A stretch of 64,000 nt of DNA, taken from assembly GCA_016708025.1 (NCBI GenBank), contig JADJGQ010000003.1, positions 448,457 to 512,456 of the forward strand, written 5' to 3'. The translations under genes were made by a program, and so were the position numbers. Of the stretch, positions 48,832 to 59,657 are shown one piece after another (within the stretch, counting starts at the first letter, position 1; each line of letters starts with the position of its first letter). Below the pieces are notes generated by a model. That model had not been told where the DNA came from. It did not search any database and saw only the letters and a program-made list of their open reading frames with translations. Origin of the DNA: a bacterium (GTDB lineage Bacteria; Zixibacteria; MSB-5A5; GN15; FEB-12).

Positions 48832-49827
48832 ATGAGAACAACCCTGTTACTTTCCGGATTGCTGCTCGCCGCGGCGCTCACCGGATGTAGTTCCAGCGAA
48901 CAGACGGCGAATACCGCAACCGGAACCCCCAAGCCGGTCAGCGCGGTCAAAGCGGATCGTCTGACGACCGGCGCGCATGACGAGATCATGGGGACAGTCC
49001 GCGCCCGCAACACCGCCGACCTGAGCACCAAGGTTCAGGCGCGCATCGACCGGATCCCGGTAGTGATCGGCAGTCGGGTAAACAGAGGCGGCACACTGGC
49101 CGAACTGGATACCCGCGAATTCAAGGCCCGCGTTCAGCAGGCGCGCGCCGTGAAGGAGCAAGCCGATCTGGATCTGACCCGCTACACGTCGCTATTGGAC
49201 AAAGATGCCGTCACCAAGCAGGAGTTTGACGCAGTCAAGGCGCGGGCATCGGTAGCAGAAGCGAATCTCGATGAAGCCGAAGCGCTCATGAGCTACGCGA
49301 CAATCACCGCCCCCTTCTCCGGAGTCGTGACACGCAAGATGGTTGATGTCGGCGATTTGGCGATACCCGGCCAGCCGCTTTTCACTCTCGAGGAAGAATC
49401 AGCGCCGCAGTTTGTGGTCACCATTCCGGAATCACAGCGCACTAAGATCGCTATCGGCGATCAGGTGCAGGTAGAAATATCATCGCTGGACACCGCCATC
49501 ACCGGCACGGTGAAGGAGCTCTCCCCCAGCGCAGACCCGGTGACCCGGTCGTTTATCGTGAAGATCGATCTTCCAGCCTCGATCGCGCGCCCCGGCCAAT
49601 TCGGTCGGTTGCTTCTTTCTGTCGGAGGGGATGAGTCGATCTACATTCCCAGCGCGGCGCTGGTTCGTCTTAATGCGGAGAATGTCGCGGTGCTTAAGTT
49701 TGTCCGAACTGGACGTTCCCTTGGCGACAAGATCGAGATTCTTGCCGGACTGGAGAGCCACGACCTGGTCGTGACCCGTGGATTGACCGGTCTAGTCGAT
49801 GGCGACAAAGTTGAGGTCCAGCCATGA
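48832..49827 (+). CDS. RND efflux periplasmic adaptor (membrane fusion protein), lipoprotein
   Basis: ATG at 48832 after GGAAGAGG. Lipobox AALTGC. Typical hairpin and lipoyl motifs ([14 protein letters not shown]..., [10 protein letters not shown]). ATGA overlap with the permease. Confidence 0.85.
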
Positions 49828-52800
49828 GCCAGGAACATCACACAGTTCCGGCCCACGGCCTCGCTGGCATGCTGGCGAAGGGGTTCATTAATTCCAAACT
49901 GACCCCACTGCTTATTTTAACTTCAGTACTGCTTGGCGCATTTGCGGTGGCGATGCTCCCCCGCGAAGAAGAACCGCAGATCAAAGTGCCGATGGTTGAC
50001 GTCATGGTTTCGGTCCCCGGCTTCACCGCCAAGGAAGTCGAAAACCGCGTCACCGCTCCCATGGAGAAACTGATCTGGGAGATTCCCGGAGTTGAATATG
50101 TCTACTCCATCTCCCGCCCCGAAGAAGCGCTGGTGATCGTGCGTTATCTCGTCGGTGAGGATGTCGAGAAGAGCCTGGTCAAGCTGAACCAGAAACTCCA
50201 ATCGAACTTCGACAAGATCCCGCCGAATGTTTCTTTCCCACTGCTGAAGCCCCGCTCGATCGATGATGTCCCGATCCTTGCGATGACCTTCCATAGCGCG
50301 GAACTGGATCATTACTCGCTCCGGCGCGTGGTCGCCGAGGTCGAGGATCAGATCAAGCAGGTGCGCGATGTCTCAGAGACAAACATAATCGGCGGACTCC
50401 GCCGTCAATACCGGATTCAGCTCGACCCGGAAGCGCTCGCCGCGCGGCAACTTGACCCGTTACAGATCATCCCGGTGCTCCGTCAGGCAAATCGCCAGAA
50501 CAAGGCCGGGTCGCTGGTATACAACAATCAGGAAGTGGTAATCGAGACCGGCGGATTTATCCGCTCGAAAGAGGATGCCGAAAAGGTTGTCCTCGGGGTC
50601 TATAACAACTCCCCGATCTACCTTCGCGATGTCGCCAAGATCATCGATGGTCCGGAGGAGCTGAATCAGGTTGTTTTGTTTGGTTCGGGAGCCGCGATCG
50701 GCCCGCATCACGAGGAGGAAGCGGCGGTCACGCTTTCAATTGCCAAGCGTCCAGGGACCAATGCGATCCAGGTCGCCGAACATGTTCTGGAGAAAGTCCA
50801 TTTCCTCGAAGGAAAAGTGATCCCGTCGAATGTTGATATGACGATCACCCGCCACTATGGCGAAACAGCCGAAGAGAAATCGAACGAGCTGCTATTCCAT
50901 ATGATGATCGCGGTTTTTTCCGTGTCGTTGCTCATCCTGCTGGCCCTGGGATGGCGCGAATCGATCATCGTAGCGCTGGCGATACCATCAACTCTCGCGC
51001 TCACTCTTCTTGTATTTTATCTTGCCGGATTTACGCTCAATCGTATTACGCTTTTCGCGCTGATCTTCTCAATCGGTATTCTGGTGGATGATGCGATCGT
51101 GGTGGTGGAGAATATCACCAGGCACTTGCATCTTGCGCAGAACAAGGGGCGACATTGGGCGAAGATCGCGATCGATGCCGTCTCCGAGGTAGGCAATCCC
51201 ACTATCCTTGCCACCTGGGCGGTGATCGCGGCAGTGTTGCCGATGGCGTTTGTCGGCGGACTGATGGGGCCATACATGCGGCCGATCCCGATCGGCGCGA
51301 CCGCGGCAATGCTCTTCTCGCTGGTGGTCGCATTTATCGTGACGCCATGGGCGGCAGTGCGTGTACTCAAATGGGGAAAATCGAAAGAGCATATCATTCA
51401 TGATGCATCCAATGAGGATTGGTCAACGCGCGCATATCGCCGTCAGATGACCAAACTGATCACCAAGCCGAAAACCCGAATGATCTACCTGACCACTATC
51501 ACCGTGCTGTTGGTTGGAGCGATGGCGCTTGTCGGCATCGGCTGGGTGCAGGTGAAGATGCTCCCGTTCGACAACAAAAACGAATTCCAGGTTATCATTA
51601 ATATGCCGGAGGGGAGTTCGCTCGAAGAGACTGTCCAGGCCTCTCGCGAGATCGCCGGAGCAATCGCCAAAGAGTCCGAGGTAACGGATTACCAGATCTA
51701 TGCGGGGAATGCATCGCCATTCAATTTTAACGGTCTGGTGCGGCATTACTTCATGCGGCGCGGCTCTTATTCTGCGGATATCCAGGTCAACCTGGTCGGG
51801 AAGGGTGAGCGGTCTGACCAGTCGCACGATATCGCCAAGCGGGTACGCCCGCGCGTGGATGATATCGCGAAGAAGTATCGCGCGGCGGTGGCGATCGCCG
51901 AGGTACCACCCGGCCCGCCGGTCTTACAGACTCTGGTAGCGGAGATCTATGGACCGACTGATTCCACCCGCACCGCGCTTTCGCGCAAGGTCGAGGAGAT
52001 CTTCAAATCGACGCCCGGCGTGGTTGATGTTGACGCCTACGAAGAGATGGATCAGCCAAAACTGACTTTCACGATCGATCATGAAAAAGCGGCGCTCCAC
52101 GGCATCACCGCCGGAGATGATCGGCCAGTCGGTGAAACTTGCGGTCCAGCGGGATACAGGTCGACATCGGACATCGCGACAATGAGCGCGAAGATGTCGC
52201 GTTAATACTGGAACTCCCCCGCGCGCAGAAAACCTCCGCGGCGGATATTCTCGGCCTGCAGATACGGATGCCGAACACGGTTCAGTCGGCGAATGCCGCC
52301 GATGCACCGCTGGTGCCGCTGCGAGAACTGGTGACGGTAATTGATACGATTGCGGAGAAAACAATCTATCGGAAAAACCTTATGCCGGTGACATATATCA
52401 TCGGCGATGTCGCGGGTGAGATCGAGTCGCCGGTGTACGCCATCATGGATATGAACAAAAAGCTGGAGAAGCTTGAGATGATCCAGTATGGCGGGACAGA
52501 GAATAAGCTGCAGATTCTCAATGCGAGTATGCCGTTCTCCACTCTCGAGCCCGCACTTAAGTGGGATGGTGAGTGGCATATCACGATAGAGGTCTTCCGC
52601 GATCTGGGGATCGCATTCGCCGCAGTACTGATCCTGATCTATATTCTGATGGTGGGATGGTTCCAGTCGCTGTTGACGCCGATCATCGTGATGGCGGCGA
52701 TTCCGTTCTCGCTCATTGGGATCATGCCGGCGCATGGCGCGATGGGGGCGTTTTTCACGGCAACCTCGATGATCGGATTTATGGCGGGGGCGGGAATTGT

Positions 52801-53083
52801 CATACGAAACTCAATCATTCTGGTCGATTTCATTGAGCTTCGTCTAAAGGAAGGGATGCCGCTGGCGGAAGCGGTGATCGATGCCGGCGCGGTGCGGTTC
52901 CGTCCGATGTTGCTCACGGCCGGCGCAGTGATTGTCGGTGCAGGAGTGATTTTGTTCGACCCGATCTTCCAGGGTCTGGCGATCGCATTGATGGCGGGCG
53001 AGGTCGCCTCGCTGTTGATCAGCCGTGTGGCGGTCCCGATTCTGTATTATGTCGGGCATAAGAAGCAGTATCCTGTGGCGTAA
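49824..53083 (+). pseudogene. RND (AcrB/CzcA-type) inner-membrane efflux permease interrupted by frameshift(s) near 52105-52165
   Basis: The 793-aa and 314-aa ORFs are the N- and C-terminal parts of one roughly 1080-aa RND permease. No outer-membrane factor gene lies adjacent. Confidence 0.85.
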
Positions 53084-53186
53084 AATGTATGCCCTTCGAC
53101 TTCGCTCAGGGCGACGATTATAGTACTTGAAGAGATCAGATGGCGGGTTCGGAAACGGACTCGCCTTTCTTATGCTCATCGCTCCC

Positions 53187-53219
53187 CACTGCCTCACCAC
53201 TGCCTCACCATTGCCTCAT
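53187..53219. repeat. Three tandem 11-bp units
   Basis: CACTGCCTCAC CACTGCCTCAC CATTGCCTCAT, followed by the further GCCTCATCC copy. Confidence 0.8.
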
Positions 53220-53582
53220 CCTTCCCCTTCCCCCGCCTCATCCTCCGCCCGGAAAAGCCTAATCCTGAACTTGATTCAGGATCCATGGGCGGTGCCGGGG
53301 TGGAATCATCAGGTTGTTGGAGGAGAATCGATTGACCTTTGGCGGCTGGCGTTGGGTTTTGGTTCGATATCAGATTGCCGCCGAAGCGTGGGATGGTCCC
53401 TCTACTAGAGGGGGGAGTTCAGGGAGCGCTAGCGGGGTAATACGGGAGGGGATAGAGCATTGGCAGGATTTTTGAAGCTTGGCGTCCCGGCCCACGGCAG
53501 GCGAATGAGAGCAGCTCATTTAGTGATTGCCAAGCGGCTTCCTACTATGCAATTTAGAAGCAACAAGTGAGCAGAAAACAAG

Positions 53583-54795
53583 ATGGGTAATCGAACAAAG
53601 AGCGCCAATTCAGAATTTAGGCTTGCAATTACTGAACAAGATGTCTTTCGAGCTAGAATTGCTGGCGAACTTGTGAAGCGTCGTAAACGTCCGACGTTGA
53701 TAGACTTGTTCGCTGGAGCGGGGGATGACGCTCGGCTTCACCAAGGGACTCGGGCACTGTTTTGAGCCGGTGTGGGCAAATGATATTGATGAGGCTTCCG
53801 TTACAACCTACCACTTGAATTTTGACTGCCACTGTGTGTCAGGAGACCTTATAGATATTTTGGCTGCCAGGAGTTACAAGATTCCTCATGCAGACGTGGT
53901 CATTGGAGGGCCACCATGCCAAGGGTTCAGCCTGCTTAACAAGAATCGGGACGGTGATCCGAGGAAGCAACTATGGAGACCGTTTCTTGATGTAGTCAAG
54001 CACTCTAAGGCAAAGCTGTTTGTCATGGAAAACGTCCCGCAGTTGCTTGGTACACCAGAGCATACAGAGATTCTTGGTTATGCCAAGAAACTAGGTTTTC
54101 AGACCGAGTCGCGTGTATTATGCGCAGCAGACTATGGAGTATCCCAGAAGCGGTATCGCGCCTTCATTATTGGGTGTTCATTTGCAGATCCGAGGATCTC
54201 CTTCCCGCCTAAGAAATCGCATTATAACCCTTGTAATGGCAGCACTCTTGATTTATTAGAATCGAATGGTGCATTTTTGACAAATCCCCAAAAATGGAGG
54301 ACAGTCAGAGATGCAATAGCGGATCTTCCACAGCCAACAGGTACCGAAATAGCTGCAGTAGCGCCACCATTCGACCTTCATTTCGGCAGGACGCCGACTC
54401 AGAAGTCCCTTCAAAGATATCGTGCAATTCCAGAAGAAGGAATGAACAGGTTCGACCTACAACGACGCGCCCTTAAATTGACTCCAGATTGCTGGATAAG
54501 GAAGACTTCCGGCGGGACTGACCTGTTTGGGCGCTTATGGTGGGATAAACCCGCTTTAACTATTCGAACAGAATTCTTCAAGCCAGAAAAAGGTCGGTAC
54601 CTTCATCCGTGTGAACATCGGCCGATTACGCACAGGGAAGCGGCGCGCCTGCAGAGTTTTCCAGATGATTTTCTATTCCACGGTTCAAAGACTCAAATCG
54701 CAAAACAGATCGGCAACGCAGTTCCTCCAATGTTAGCTGCTCGAGTCGCAGACTGCGTTTTTTCTCTTTGGCTCTCTCAGGAACAAGCTACATGA
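53583..54795 (+). pseudogene. DNA (cytosine-5)-methyltransferase, frameshifted inside motif I
   Basis: LIDLFAGAG is followed out of frame by MTLGF; the expected sequence is FAGAGGMTLGF. Downstream motifs are intact: GGPPCQGFS, ENV (FVMENVPQL), QKRYRAF, GNAVPP. Confidence 0.85.
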
Positions 54796-55202
54796 GCGAC
54801 GTTTTTTCTAGTAAGAAGCGCAGCGAGATAATGTCGCTTGTGAAGGGGCGCGATACAACACCCGAAAGAATAGTAAGATCACTCCTTCATCGAAATGGAT
54901 ATCGCTTTTCTGTTCATCGGTCGGACCTACCCGGAAGACCCGATATAGTTCTAACAAGACATCGTACTGTTGTATTTGTAAATGGCTGTTTCTGGCATGA
55001 CCACAAAGGATGCAAAAGAGCAAGTAAACCACAAAGTAATAGATTGTTCTGGATGGAGAAAATTGAATCTACTAGGATGCGGGATCAACGGAATGGCAGA
55101 TTATTGCGAAAATTGGGTTGGCGTGTTTTGACCGTATGGGAATGTGAAACCAAGCGCGACAACTTCCTGGCATCAAAGATTCGGAATTATTTCCAACGAT
55201 AG
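54792..55202 (+). CDS. vsr: Very-short-patch repair endonuclease
   Basis: KKRSEIMSLVKGRDTTPE...GRPDIVLTRHRTVVFVNGCFWHDHKGC...WRVLTVWECE. ATGA overlap with the methyltransferase stop. Confidence 0.9.
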   Translation: MSDVFSSKKRSEIMSLVKGRDTTPERIVRSLLHRNGYRFSVHRSDLPGRPDIVLTRHRTVVFVNGCFWHDHKGCKRASKPQSNRLFWMEKIESTRMRDQRNGRLLRKLGWRVLTVWECETKRDNFLASKIRNYFQR

Positions 55203-55215
55203 GCGGACAAAAACA

Positions 55216-56154
55216 ATGCCAAGACGGACAAAATGTGAGCAACCCGAGTCCCACCGAATCGAACTAATCGACTTATTGATGAATTTTGAGGCGGAGCTCA
55301 GATCCAAAGACCTACGTCGAAAAGTCCTCTCACTAGTCGACGCATATCGATTGCTGCACAACTTAGGAAGTTCACTAATTCCAATGGAGATTGCCAAGTC
55401 GGCCAGGGATCGCATTCTTTGCTACTTTAGGAAATACCCTTCGACGATAATCGATGGAGAGGAAATCATGGTGGTTTCCGGAATTAGTGAGTGGGCAAGA
55501 AGGGTGCGAGAGCTTAGAGTTCAATTTGGATGGAGCATCATTAGTGGAATCACAGCCAAGGAGATGCTGAAAGAGGAATCTCCTCTTGTCATTAACGGCG
55601 TTGAAATCAGCGAAATGAAACCGAATCAGTATTTTCTCGCGAGCCCAGAAGAAGATCGGGAGGCTGCTAGGCGTTGGCATGTAGCCAACGACATCCGAAA
55701 GGGAAAAGGCGGCTCGAAAGAGAAAATTATTGAATTCTTCCGTCAAAACGTGGGTCAGCCAATAAGCGGAGAAGAATTACGTTACGCTGCTAATGACAAA
55801 TCAGAATGGGCCAGACGTGTGAGAGAACTCAGAACTGAAAATGGCTGGCCAATTGTTACACGCAATACCGGCAGACCAGATCTACCTGTTGGAATGTATG
55901 TGCTCGAACAGGACCGACAGAGCCCCGAACATGACAGGAACATTCCCGATTTGGTACGACGCACAGTCCTCGAACAAGCAAAGTACCGTTGTGCTAACTG
56001 CAAATGGCATCACAAGAAGTGGAATCGATCGGACCCGCGATTTCTCGAGCTTCACCACAGTGTTCCGCATTCTCACGGTGGAAAGAATGAAGCCGAGAAT
56101 CTCATTGTATTATGTAACGTCTGTCACGATCAGATTCACAAGAAACGTCGATAG
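55216..56154 (+). CDS. HNH nuclease with a duplicated N-terminal winged-helix-like module; probable restriction endonuclease of the cassette
   Basis: C-terminal CANCKW...LELHHSVPHSHGGKNEAENLIVLCNVCHDQIH (HNH). Two copies of SEWARRVRELR..GW.I lie 105 aa apart. It starts 13 nt after vsr. Confidence 0.7.
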   Translation: MPRRTKCEQPESHRIELIDLLMNFEAELRSKDLRRKVLSLVDAYRLLHNLGSSLIPMEIAKSARDRILCYFRKYPSTIIDGEEIMVVSGISEWARRVRELRVQFGWSIISGITAKEMLKEESPLVINGVEISEMKPNQYFLASPEEDREAARRWHVANDIRKGKGGSKEKIIEFFRQNVGQPISGEELRYAANDKSEWARRVRELRTENGWPIVTRNTGRPDLPVGMYVLEQDRQSPEHDRNIPDLVRRTVLEQAKYRCANCKWHHKKWNRSDPRFLELHHSVPHSHGGKNEAENLIVLCNVCHDQIHKKRR

Positions 56155-57232
56155 TCCCCCCTACTTCCGCACCTAGCGTGTACTGGCCGTACATGTCCTT
56201 GGCGTAGTCCATCTCTTTATCCCAGCCGAAGTACTTCCCCATCTCGCGGGCAGGTTCGGTATCATCGACGTTATACCCCAACACCGTAAAGCCGGTCTTT
56301 TCGAGCAGCTCCTGCGTAAACGGGCAGCGGCCATCGGACCACGGCACATATTTCTCGTCCGGCCCGCTCAGTTTCGGATGGAGATTGTAGATCATGAAAT
56401 ATCCCCCCGGCTTAAGCAGATCGTAGATAGTTTTCACATAGGCGGAATCAGTGACCCCCAACTGCACCAGCATGCGCGGGTCAACCTCGCGCTCCGGATG
56501 AATGTACCCATGCTTGAGCGTGTTCTTGGAAATAAACAGATCGTAGCCCTCGCCGACAATGGCGCGCGTCGCGCTGTCTGCGGGGAATGAACCGAACGCG
56601 AGCGTGAGGTGTCCCGGCGCTCCCTCCCCTGCCACACGCGCACGCGCGATATAGCCGGCATCGGCAGGCTGCGCATAGAGCAGTTTGAGAAGCGGGTCAA
56701 CTTCGATACCGGTGACATTCGCGCCGCAGGAGGCCATCAGGCGGAGATGGCCGATCGAACCGAAGCCGTAGTCGGCAATACGGGCGGAATCCAATTTTGC
56801 CAGGCCGGCTATGCCGACGAGGTCGAGCGCGCGGGCGAAGGCGAGCGGTGTGCCATAGCGGGTGAAGTAGTAGAACTCTTCGCCGACATCGCGTCTTTCG
56901 TAGCCTTCAATGGATTGCTTCGTCGCTTCGCTCCTCGCAATGACATTGGACGTGTCTGTGGCTTTTTTGTATTCAGCTTCGGACATGTATGAGCGGGTCG
57001 TTTTGTTGACATAAACGACGCGGGATTCGATCGACGGTAGATCGGGGACCGCCGCGAGGAATTGTTTGGCGATGGGTGAAGTGACGAAAGTCGCAAGCGT
57101 GTCCGCCTGGAGATTCAGCACTTCGAGTGCGGTGAGGGTGTCGCCGGTGGTGTCGGTCTGGGCGACGGATGATCCGGCGAGGGTGGCGCTGATGAGAAGC
57201 GCGATTGCAAAGATGGTGCGAAGGTGGCGCAT
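56102..57232 (-). CDS. Exported class I SAM-dependent methyltransferase-like protein, with its C-terminal 17 codons read from islet DNA
   Basis: Start moved to the ATG at 57232 (MRHLRTIFAIALLISATLAGSSVAQ signal peptide). Motif I-like IADYGFGSIGHL...VTGIEVD; YDLFISKNTL; LKPGGYFMIYN. Confidence 0.6.
   Translation of the reverse strand: MRHLRTIFAIALLISATLAGSSVAQTDTTGDTLTALEVLNLQADTLATFVTSPIAKQFLAAVPDLPSIESRVVYVNKTTRSYMSEAEYKKATDTSNVIARSEATKQSIEGYERRDVGEEFYYFTRYGTPLAFARALDLVGIAGLAKLDSARIADYGFGSIGHLRLMASCGANVTGIEVDPLLKLLYAQPADAGYIARARVAGEGAPGHLTLAFGSFPADSATRAIVGEGYDLFISKNTLKHGYIHPEREVDPRMLVQLGVTDSAYVKTIYDLLKPGGYFMIYNLHPKLSGPDEKYVPWSDGRCPFTQELLEKTGFTVLGYNVDDTEPAREMGKYFGWDKEMDYAKDMYGQYTLGAEVGGTIDVSCESDRDRRYIIQ
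56912..56944. repeat. Short palindromic element copy A (inside the CDS, in frame)
   Basis: GGATTGCTTCGTCGCTTCGCTCCTCGCAATGAC, translated on the minus strand as VIARSEATKQSI. Confidence 0.7.
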
Positions 57233-57310: not shown

Positions 57311-57507
57311 ATTGATTCCGCGCGAAGCGCAGCCTCCCATACTTACGGTAAGGTAACGGTTCAGTTGCAGGGATGCGAGGGGGAAATTGCGCCCTCACCG
57401 TCCGCCGATAGCAGGCCCCCTCTCCCAGAGGGAGAGGAGAAATTTCTGAGGGATTGGATGTAGGGGGCCTTCGTTGGCCGGGCGAAGATGGGTGGATGTT
57501 CGAAAAA

Positions 57508-57583: not shown

Positions 57584-59657
57584 TTACGGACAATTGGGCA
57601 AGGTCGGGCGTGGTACCTGCGTCAGATAGGCTATCAAGAGCGACAGATCAGACAGGTCGATAGAGCCTGTGGTGTTGACGTTCGCTTCCGGCAGGCATGG
57701 CAGGACCGGACGCGGAACAATTGTCAGATAGCTGATGAGCAGAGAGAGATCCGACAGGTCAGGCGTTTCAATAACGCCATCGTTCACATTGCCGGTGGTG
57801 CCAACACAGCAACTGACTGTCTGGCAGGAATCGCCGACACCATCGCCATCAGAATCCTCCTGCAACGGATTGTATTTGTTGGGGCAATTGTCGCACAGAT
57901 CGCCGATCAGATCGAAATCGACATCAGACTGCGTTGGATTTGAGACAGTCGGGCAGTTGTCACAGATCGCCAACTCCATCCAGGTCGCCATCAAGCTGAG
58001 TCGGATTCGAGATGGTCGGGCAATTGTCGCAGGCATCACCAAAGGTGTCGGCATCGGTATCGAGCTGATTGTTGTTCGTTACCGCTCTGCAGTTGTCGCA
58101 GGCATCGCCAAGCGTGTCGAGATCGGAGTTGACCTGCGAGGGATTGGGCGTGAAGTCGCAATTATCGAGCGAATCGATAATGCCGTCATTGTCTGTGTCA
58201 CAGGCGAAAACATTCTCAAAGATGACATCCTGATCGACACCATTGCGGCCATCGTTCCAGACGATGCCGAAGGGATTGATCAGGTTGAAATCCGAATCGA
58301 AATAGGACCCGATGTATTGTCCCAAAGGACGCGGAATGGTGCTAACCGGTGGGAATGGACCATTGCGCGTGAGTATGCAATCCTGAAACGTAACGCCACA
58401 GTCGCGCGAGATGGATGACCAGATCTCGACGGCGTTGTTGGCCAGGTCATTGCGACGGTCGTTGTAGCTGACTATCACCGCGCCGGTGTTGCGGTCGAGA
58501 GTGATCGTCGGCGCCCATTGATCGCGTCCATTACCAACCGGGTCCTGATTGACGCGCATCGGCGGGAGGAATGATCCGGGAGCTCCGCCAGCCGGACTGA
58601 CGGTCATCCAGATATCGATATCGGTTCCGGTCGGACCGGGAGCATCCCAGACAATATAGACATAACTGGGACATCCGCCGGCAACACCTTGTCAATCGCG
58701 AGGTCAACCGTATTGGCGACTTCGATTCCCGGAGCGAGTGTGGGAGGTACAGGAAGAATTCCACCGGTAATGATTGCGGCAGGGACCATGGCGCACCGCC
58801 GGTAGGAGTCGGGTTCCAAGACATCACGATGTTACCTGCCAGAATGTCGCGCCAGATACAGTAAGTCGCGCCGGGAGGGAGAAATCCTGTTCCGGCTGGG
58901 CCGGCAAAATCGAGGGCTGGCTTATGTCCTGCAGATACGCGCCATGCGGCATGCCCGGCATGACTGGGGCGGGCCGAGAAAGTGCCGGATAGGGGAAAGG
59001 TCCGCCAAAAGCAGATTTGTGGAGGAGGACCAGATAGCGGCAAGGTCGGCAGGATCATTGTAGAAGTTCAAGTCTCCGTTGGGTCGCCATCGATGTCGGT
59101 GGATTGCACCCAGGCATAAGTAGCCTCACCCATCATTGGAACGGGGATACCAGGGACATCAACAATGGAAGAGCTGGGTAGTCGAACCATTGATTGATTG
59201 CCGGGCTGATACTGATCGGAAAAAGGTGCGGCGAACGGTGCGCCACCGCCAAGACTTCAGACATGTAGACCGCGTTTCCGATCGGCGTGAATTGCTGTCC
59301 CTGGTCCAAAGGCAGTGCCGCCCATCATGAATCCACCACCTGGAGCAGAGCCAAGTGAAGGGTTCCAGTCGCTGGATAGGGGGCGGCGCGGTCACACCCA
59401 TTGGCAGCCAGGAACCAGAAGCGCCGAAAGCCGGTGACCATGCCCAGTCAATCGTCACCGCCTGGAAAAAGGCCTGGCAAATGATTGTTGTAAAGGTGTA
59501 GATCTCTCCCGGTTTGATCTCGTTCCAGGAGACTGCTGTGTTGTTTTGTTCGGACCCGGGTGGATGTCCGGAGCCACGGGTGAGTTAGCCATGACACTGA
59601 ACCCAGGAAGCAGATGATCGCGGCAACTCTGCTGAATGAGAGAATCAGGCGAACCAT
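57584..59657 (-). pseudogene. Secreted BNR/sialidase-like protein with thrombospondin type 3 repeats and a twin dockerin-like C-terminal tail, broken by at least five frame changes
   Basis: Recognisable pieces lie in all three minus frames. They are a signal peptide (MVRLILSFSRVAAIICFLGSVS), [13 protein letters not shown] (BNR), repeated D.D.D..GD.CDNCP..(S/Y)NP.Q, and [12 protein letters not shown]...[13 protein letters not shown]...[14 protein letters not shown]. Confidence 0.7.

Follow-up and report, generated by a model that had tools for sequence, protein, structure and literature searches.

A probable Type II restriction-modification operon with a linked vsr gene in a small variable slot of a Zixibacteria chromosome

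How a short AT-rich group of genes came to lie between two conserved convergent genes, and whether it damaged one of them on arrival, is the question raised by a locus in a Zixibacteria genome (lineage MSB-5A5; GN15; FEB-12, assembly GCA_016708025.1). The DNA analysed here, referred to as the window, is a stretch of 64,000 nucleotides of contig JADJGQ010000003.1 (positions 448,457 to 512,456 of the forward strand), and all positions are counted from its first letter unless another locus is named. The element in question, referred to as the cassette, comprises genes for a C5 cytosine DNA methyltransferase (the methylase), a very-short-patch T:G mismatch endonuclease (Vsr) and a protein with an HNH nuclease domain, and it lies between the gene of an AcrB-type efflux transporter and a convergent gene for a secreted methyltransferase-like protein (the host gene). 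A first-pass annotation, made by reading the letters, had described a recent mobile islet bounded by an 8-bp inverted repeat, which on insertion had taken the place of the native 3' end of the host gene. We find instead that positions 53583-56154 very probably constitute a chromosomal Type II restriction-modification (RM) operon with a linked Vsr, sited in a variable slot and swapped by recombination, and that the insertions and deletions (indels) disturbing the reading frames are likely errors. The cassette is a known kind of system, Type II RM with Vsr, in a previously undescribed copy within a small variable hotspot.

Inspection of the open reading frames (ORFs), combined with a Pfam and TIGR profile search, confirmed the three co-oriented genes in the window (Table 1). 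The vsr start codon (ATG, 54792-54794) overlaps the methylase stop codon (TGA, 54793-54795) as ATGA, and 13 nt (55203-55215) separate vsr from the HNH gene; the gene set, its orientation and both junctions had been read correctly in the first-pass annotation. The methylase matches PF00145 with an E value of 9e-52 (177 bits against a cut-off of 22, beginning at profile position 15) and TIGR00675 with 155.5 bits (cut-off 100.65). Vsr matches TIGR00632 over profile positions 1-119 of 119 (E 2e-40, 137.7 bits, cut-off 97.85) as well as PF03852 (E 9e-27, 93 bits), and its product is 78-79% identical to the counterparts in the related loci L001 and L004. The ORFs and the Pfam search showed these three genes and no recombinase among them, here and in the L001 and L004 copies.

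The HNH protein matches PF01844 at an E value of 1e-8 (35.2 bits against a cut-off of 21.4) and has C259, C262, H280, H281, N295, C300, C303, H304 and H308, all of them invariant in 32 homologues. The profile match, the catalytic His and Asn residues and the Cys4 zinc ligands make it a member of the HNH (ββα-metal) nuclease superfamily; within Pfam and NCBIfam it matched generic HNH models only. An AlphaFold model (pLDDT 88) has a helical N-terminus, two winged-helix-like repeats, in which the motif …SEWARRVRELR..GW.I… is present twice, and a C-terminal Cys4 HNH domain. The HNH type is a recognised class among Type II restriction enzymes, with KpnI, Hpy99I, PacI, SphI, MboII, MnlI and HpyAV as members (PMC4081073). 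The window protein is like these enzymes in its C-terminal ββα-metal core with CxxC…CxxC zinc ligands, but outside that core it has no detectable likeness in sequence or whole-chain fold to the solved members, and its N-terminal architecture differs.

The argument that this nuclease is the partner of the methylase comes from the company it keeps in other genomes. The HNH protein gave 3295 database matches; among the matches listed, 119, after the L001 orthologue (P0121, 93% identical), are about 310 amino acids long and 57-65% identical over nearly the full length, and their named sources include Nitrospirota and Candidatus Sulfobium. With identities of 50-65%, the cassette gene set also turns up in other phyla, on plasmids of proteobacteria and on viral contigs of IMG/VR. 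An orthologous methylase gene lies next to the HNH gene in all 57 loci with a full-length HNH gene and sufficient flank (47-66% identity among the loci listed), and vsr is present in 41 of them; the gene order is methylase-vsr-HNH in 34 loci, methylase-HNH in 16 and another in 7. The pairing is thus kept across unrelated genomes, plasmid copies included, as it is in Type II RM systems, and since 16 of the loci have no vsr, it argues for a methylase-nuclease pair rather than for an accessory of Vsr or a stand-alone Type IV enzyme.

Individual copies vary around this theme. On the Pandoraea plasmid pPO70-1 (L010 4581-5939) the methylase gene is followed by a Vsr-HNH fusion, and on a Sphingomonas plasmid vsr and then HNH are met by a convergent methylase gene. 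P0234 is a further Vsr-HNH fusion; the fused proteins have about 440-452 amino acids, and the pPO70-1 copy is annotated merely 'Vsr'. The IMG/VR viral contigs hold 27 HNH copies with matches of at least 250 residues. The loci L172-L198 from that source carry methylase-HNH, mostly without vsr and with a constant 20-nt gap between the two genes, and look like one closely related prophage-borne group.

Could the HNH protein nevertheless be something other than the cognate restriction enzyme, such as a McrA-like Type IV nuclease or a nickase that aids Vsr repair? Both the best sequence match and the best fold match of its HNH core are to Escherichia coli McrA, the nearest solved core (PDB 6ghc, E 2e-7), PADLOC ranks a Type IV model narrowly above a Type II model (E 1.2e-8 against 1.4e-8), and Vsr-HNH fusions do occur. 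However, the likeness to McrA covers only residues 246-310, and the N-terminal 240 residues form winged-helix repeats in place of the domain with which McrA reads 5-methylcytosine (5mC). McrA is a stand-alone enzyme, whereas the window HNH family is always paired with a methylase, in 16 of the 57 loci without vsr; with the alignment confined to the HNH core, membership of the McrA-like Type IV nucleases was rejected. A methyl-directed nuclease beside an active methylase would, moreover, attack its own genome unless the two specificities differed. We regard a non-cognate role as improbable.

The three proteins would then work together as follows. The C5-methylase would mark a specific sequence on host DNA, and the HNH protein is predicted to cut the same sequence when it is unmethylated, the winged-helix-like domains recognising it and the Cys4 HNH domain catalysing cleavage; Vsr would repair the T:G mismatches that arise by deamination of 5mC. 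The classic methylase-Vsr pair is Dcm/Vsr of E. coli. The cassette is like Type II RM systems with a linked vsr in its ATGA-coupled C5-methylase and Vsr genes and its adjacent nuclease gene, and the shared logic is that of self-marking by methylation, restriction of unmarked DNA and repair of 5mC deamination. It differs in the nuclease, which belongs to an uncharacterised HNH family with tandem winged-helix-like domains.

Comparison with relatives, which where taxonomically labelled are all Zixibacteria metagenome-assembled genomes (MAGs), showed that the site itself is polymorphic. Apart from the window, the same cassette occupies the same site in two lineages, L001/L002 and L003-L005, whose host proteins are 79% and 73% identical to that of the window. 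Two lineages have an empty site, with AcrB and host genes but no cassette: L027, in which the stops are 355 nt apart (host protein 80% identical, C-terminal part of AcrB 96%), and L220-222, in which they are 170 nt apart (host protein 78%). Three more hold other cargo, namely a PDC-S02-like defence candidate in L012 (PADLOC, E 6e-8; host protein 77%), about 0.85 kb in L006 for which family searches gave no match (68%), and a RAYT-like Y1 transposase flanked by repetitive extragenic palindromes (REPs) in L224 (69%). The right-hand limit of the variable segment falls no more than 1-2 nt from the HNH stop (56154/56155), and its left-hand start lies between 53287 (after a palindrome, judged from the empty alleles) and about 53450 (after a conserved non-coding block, judged from L006 and L224). 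The palindrome is found in the empty alleles 25 nt from the host stop and is therefore the outermost possible left limit of the variable segment. The operon occupies a slot between the terminator of the AcrB-type efflux gene and the stop codon of the convergent conserved gene, a slot that in relatives is either empty or filled with a defence candidate, a REP-flanked transposase or a gene of no known family.

Two of the alternative cargoes merit a description of their own. In L012 (7268-7489) the PDC-S02 match begins at the same right junction and runs for 74 codons to the contig end. In L224 (1230-1900) the cargo is a 159-amino-acid RAYT-like (IS200-type Y1) transposase, with a weak Pfam match (E 0.003) and HUH and YIHxNP motifs read by eye, and the palindromes flanking it are near-identical, 45 nt long (CCCAGGTTCTCTCGCCGCGCTTCGCTCGC.CGGAACCTGGGCTAC); L008 and L009 also have this REP, in their case after the host gene. 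The L224 REP element is absent from the window.

The composition of the cassette deviates as well. Its genes have a G+C content (GC) of 47.1%, against 54.8 ± 1.4% in equal-sized windows elsewhere (z = -5.4), which is the minimum of the window, and the tetranucleotide distance reaches its maximum there; vsr alone has 43.3% GC. At third codon positions the cassette genes have 40-47% GC against 59-69% in neighbouring genes. The AT-richness read by the first-pass annotation is therefore real under a computed GC and tetranucleotide check, although its hand counts (40% and 43% inside against 58-70% in the flanks) exaggerated the contrast. Low GC is also found in the cassettes of relatives (46.9-47.0%), and outside this locus the cassette family is AT-richer than its own flanks in 52 of 76 loci. 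Presence and absence, alternative cargo and deviant GC together mark a genomic islet in a variable hotspot, and a horizontal origin, as proposed earlier, is borne out by the empty sites in L027 and L220-222, by composition and by the copies on plasmids, on viral contigs and in other phyla.

RM units are established as mobile cassettes that can substitute for one another allelically (PMC2853133). The present cassette is like the catalogued units in its presence/absence polymorphism, its substitution by unrelated RM or defence genes, its lower GC and the lack of its own recombinase. It differs in having no long target duplication or flanking repeats, in place of which we find signs of flank-mediated exchange and a mosaic within the cassette.

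What, then, of the inverted repeat? The two octamers do exist, AGGGGGGA at 53409-53416 and, immediately behind the HNH stop codon, TCCCCCCT at 56155-56162, but they do not bound the element. The left arm, with the hairpin CCCTCTA-C-TAGAGGG, lies within a block of about 50 nt that is also present in L006 and L224 with different cargo. The right arm is a variable-length G/C run beside the host stop, which also occurs in L012 and L006 with other cargo and in the empty L027; on the host strand it reads GGGGGA in the window, GGGGG in L001 and L012, GGGGGGGGA in L004 and GGG in L006 and L027. Both arms thus belong to sequence that cassette-free relatives share, so the repeat does not mark element ends. 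It is also at chance level: the window has 3 copies of the octamer where 1.4 would be expected, and in 49% of shuffled versions of the upstream intergenic region one or more 8-mer inverted repeats formed with the first 100 nt beyond the HNH stop. Of the 80 inverted-repeat pairs listed in the region, the 25 longest do not include this pair, and the inverted repeats listed exceed 8 nt in length. Folding of the 61 nt that surround the hairpin was no better than that of shuffled sequence (z = +0.5). A repeat search of the cassette edges found no target-site duplication or direct repeat at the junctions and no longer or imperfect terminal repeats. With both arms in the backbone, no transposase or recombinase and no target duplication, a transposon or insertion-sequence-like element with terminal inverted repeats was rejected.

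The apparent gene fusion has a simpler origin. The convergent ORF 56102-57232 does overlap the HNH gene by 53 nt and ends in TIDVSCESDRDRRYIIQ, and its protein, which has more than 1000 homologues, is identical to the deposited MAG protein IPH75_13320 (P0001). All 13 aligned homologues, however, end in …YGQYTL(V/M/L)(R/K)K, and the extension GAEVGGTIDVSCESDRDRRYIIQ is found in the window protein only. Where relatives read ACG CTG GTG AGG AAG TAG, the window reads ACG CTA GGT GCG GAA GTA GGG. Removal of a single base, for which T56174 is the simplest choice (L001 and L027 have CCAG in place of CCTAG), yields a 356-amino-acid protein ending in YGQYTLVRK, and the corrected stop, TAG at 56161-56163, lies 6 nt from the HNH stop; cassette-bearing relatives with intact genes have convergent stops 5-9 nt apart. 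The segment 56102-56160 encodes the last 19 of the 23 non-native residues (GAEVGGTIDVSCESDRDRRYIIQ) and a stop, the final 17 residues being antisense to the HNH gene. The native L-V-R-K-stop is thus still encoded in the DNA, one frame off, so the host 3' end was never replaced; read from the alignment, the native C-terminus is intact in the DNA and the fusion is the product of a one-base frameshift. The overlap noted earlier stands, and the replacement does not. The first-pass annotation had also named relatives with the same three genes and the same fusion at this site as a finding that would count against it: L001-L005 carry the genes there, but no relative has the fusion.

Age provides a further argument. 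In L001/L002 and L003-L005 the cassette lies at exactly this site, with alleles more diverged than the flanks: DNA identity in the flanks is about 80-90% for all pairs, and L001 and L004 are only 55-75% identical over the cassette. A single recent insertion does not account for this. The ORF overlap, the octamers, the deviant composition and the empty-site alleles are what a recent islet that destroyed the host 3' end would leave, but the native terminus survives one frame off, the repeat arms are shared with cassette-free relatives, the repeat is at chance level and its run lengths vary between lineages, and two other lineages hold the same site with deep allelic divergence. That scenario is extremely improbable.

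The divergence is, in addition, unevenly distributed. Over 53440-55150, which covers the leader, the methylase gene and most of vsr, L004 matches the window at 82-98% identity and L001 at 63-74%; over 55150-56160, the HNH gene, the figures are 50-65% for L004 and 81-94% for L001. The proteins follow the same division, the methylase being 95% identical to that of L004 and 77% to that of L001 (ranges 95-100% and 70-77%), and the HNH protein 93% identical to that of L001 and 62% to that of L004. On this alignment evidence the window copy is a mosaic, with an L004-like methylase-vsr half and an L001-like HNH half. Similarity changes over within the 3' half of vsr, a region in which the three alleles share 81-87% identity and in which homologous recombination could readily occur. 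From 53509 to 53800 identity to L004 is 96-98%, above flank level, which suggests that this part was exchanged fairly recently; this is the sole sense in which 'recent horizontal' would hold. The overall picture from these comparisons is of a cassette that has been at this site across several lineages while its halves were replaced by divergent alleles. Gain, loss and swap of the cassette would most likely proceed by homologous recombination through the conserved flanks and conserved internal stretches, for which no recombinase would be needed.

Mixed allele pairs would be tolerated if the alleles shared a recognition sequence. The target-recognition region of the methylase shows the same level of conservation as the catalytic core, at 74-94% among Zixibacteria and 53-60% against plasmid copies, and it is plausible that one specificity is shared across the family, which would account for such pairs. 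A recognition sequence could not be taken from the nearest solved methylase, M.HaeIII, which matches the catalytic core only and not the recognition region.

A more specialised alternative is that the slot serves as a dedicated site-specific exchange site, integron-like or mobilised in trans, with the conserved block or the palindrome as the recombination site of an enzyme encoded elsewhere. Unrelated cargo is always found after the block and before the host stop, the right junction can be placed to 1-2 nt, the palindrome directly adjoins the variable segment, and one allele (L224) carries a Y1 (RAYT-like) transposase. Yet neither the cassette nor its immediate surroundings hold a recombinase gene, target duplications are lacking, the right ends have no motif in common apart from the G/C run, and the available sequence contains the block and the palindrome once each. 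The mosaic breakpoint, for its part, lies in a stretch conserved between alleles, as plain homologous recombination predicts, and we judge an enzyme-driven exchange site to be quite improbable. A related proposal, unlikely but carrying a real chance, is that the AcrB-host gap is a dedicated cassette-exchange slot, delimited by the block and by the host stop with its G/C run, in which defence or selfish cargo is swapped without a resident recombinase and the RM halves are exchanged independently between alleles 25-40% divergent in protein sequence. If true, a dedicated slot with independent halves would require that recognition specificity be preserved across that divergence in a winged-helix-HNH family with thousands of members.

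The frameshift in the host gene is one of many. The methylase, which the first-pass annotation took for a single gene, is split into two ORFs, motif I (DLFAGAG) lying in 53583-53765 and the remaining motifs, in another frame, in 53725-54795. The split results from a 2-nt deletion after the G5 run 53720-53724, where L004 has GGGGGGC and the window GGGGG; adding GC restores a 404-amino-acid methylase with motifs I (FxGxG), IV (PCQ), VI (ENV), VIII (QxRxR), IX and X (GNAVP), and the orthologues in L001 and L004 are unbroken at 403 amino acids. Phase variation at this run was rejected, as the tract differs between alleles (GGGGGG in L004, TGGCGG in L001). The AcrB gene is broken by two insertions 33 nt apart, and its orthologues in L001, L004 and L220 are unbroken at 1085 amino acids. 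Relative to intact L001 orthologues, further frame switches occur near 57964, 60110 and 62850, in genes for a TSP3-repeat protein, an EamA transporter and a 793-amino-acid protein, which brings the total to at least 7 frame-breaking indels in 17 kb of the window. Relatives with AcrB proteins 93-95% identical have all the corresponding genes intact.

The indels could in principle be real, in which case the locus is decaying, the methylase is a pseudogene, the host C-terminus is 20 residues longer and AcrB is inactivated. The deposited protein P0001 has the extended form, the host-gene insertion does not lie in a homopolymer, and the methylase lesion is of 2 nt rather than 1. Against this, at least 7 indels in 17 kb strike nearly every gene longer than 1 kb, housekeeping-type genes included, while all orthologues are intact, and over the 3.26 kb of AcrB the window and L001 differ in length by only the two frame-breaking bases. 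Loss of the methylase beside an active restriction gene is normally lethal in RM systems, and the restriction gene here is intact. Given this pattern across 17 kb, assembly error fits much better than biology: the indels in the host gene, the methylase and AcrB are most likely assembly errors, as judged by comparison with orthologues, and not results of an insertion. True decay of the locus is unlikely, though it merits some weight.

Several observations weigh against the reading of a recombining Type II operon with erroneous indels. The enzyme closest to the HNH core, McrA, is modification-dependent; a structure search found no whole-chain match to the HNH protein in the PDB; and a literature search for a characterised methylase-Vsr-HNH prototype returned general reviews only. 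Deep lineages contain the block of about 50 nt, which the empty alleles lack, and those alleles may be either sites never occupied or deletions. The indels could be real mutations, that in the host gene (CCAG to CCTAG) lying outside a homopolymer, and a frameshifted methylase, if real, would be unexpected beside an intact nuclease gene. Finally, palindrome avoidance, examined as a guide to the recognition sequence in about 108 kb of cassette-bearing and about 52 kb of cassette-free sequence, yielded no more than a weak hint: GGCC had an observed/expected ratio of 0.79 in the former against 0.91 in the latter, GGCC/GGGCCC were weakly depleted, and CTAG was depleted in both sets.

Table 1. Features of the cassette and its surroundings (positions in the window; strand as reported)
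Feature	Positions	Strand	Evidence and remarks
AcrB-type resistance-nodulation-division (RND) transporter gene	49824-53083		Split into ORFs of 793 and 314 amino acids by 1-nt insertions at 52113 and 52146
Intrinsic terminator hairpin of AcrB gene	53142..53165	+	10 pairs, then T-run; fold z = -4.2; backbone
Perfect 8-5-8 palindrome ATCCTGAACTTGATTCAGGAT	53262..53282	.	Identical in L001-L004; in empty alleles L027 and L220; fold z = -2.4
Conserved non-coding block, about 50 nt	53397..53449	.	Consensus CCCCTCTATTAATGGGGGCGGA…GATAGCGG.TGTAATACGGGGG; …CCTCTATTAATGGGGG…TGTAATACGGGGG; contains the hairpin and the left arm
Leader upstream of methylase start, 67 nt	53516..53582	+	Almost invariant even against L001 (coding part only 63-74% identical)
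C5 cytosine DNA methyltransferase gene	53583..54795	+	PF00145, TIGR00675; broken into ORFs 53583-53765 and 53725-54795
vsr, very-short-patch T:G mismatch endonuclease gene	54792..55202	+	PF03852, TIGR00632
Putative restriction endonuclease (HNH) gene, 312 amino acids	55216..56154	+	PF01844; stop codon 56152-56154
TCCCCC spacer between convergent stops	56155..56160	.	Part of right arm; backbone, length-variable
Spurious ORF extension from frameshift	56102..56160	-	No homologue has the extension
Host gene, true extent, secreted S-adenosylmethionine (SAM)-methyltransferase-like	56161..57232	-	1-nt insertion within 56172-56175 masks native TAG

The intergenic DNA to the left of the cassette contains several elements. 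Among the signals returned by promoter and terminator scans, the AcrB terminator is the only convincing one, and it is kept in L001, L003, L004 and the empty allele L220; a promoter scan found no sigma-70 consensus match upstream of the methylase. The leader is presumed, from its conservation, to contain the promoter, operator and ribosome-binding region of the cassette. The palindrome ATCCTGAACTTGATTCAGGAT is single-copy in the window and adjoins the variable segment, and the intergenic DNA around it is poorly conserved. The conserved block could be aligned in the window, L001, L004, L006 (unrelated cargo) and L224 (transposase-like cargo), and was missing from 128 RM loci of other taxa apart from one 10-mer match; by this distribution it belongs to the locus and not to the RM cassette. 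It had no Rfam match and no significant fold, and an Rfam search of the intergenic regions gave nothing but a sub-threshold Thr_leader match outside the locus.

Three further observations concern the non-coding sequence. Just 3' of the AcrB terminator, at 53182-53225, lie about 4 tandem units of an 11-nt repeat (CTCACCACTGC-like) and, after them, a C/T-rich tract, and this stretch differs in length among the window, L001 and L004. At 56152-56163 there is no terminator between the convergent HNH and host stop codons. Palindromic motifs of the CCCTCTCCC…GGGAGAGG type lie upstream of the host gene (about 57405-57440) and in the intergenic DNA of the empty allele L027 (7290-7340), and may be a dispersed REP-like repeat.

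Two cautions follow for the reading of such loci. What looked like a gene fusion made by an insertion comes down to a single additional base in an assembly rich in indels, and the inverted repeat picked out by eye is low-complexity backbone sequence. The HNH family to which the nuclease belongs is large (more than 3000 database matches), has no solved whole-chain relative, and is always methylase-paired, in several phyla, on plasmids and on viral contigs. For the Zixibacteria, the locus is a clear small defence-gene hotspot between conserved convergent genes, with empty, RM, PDC-S02-like and transposase alleles, in which the RM cassette is itself recombinant.

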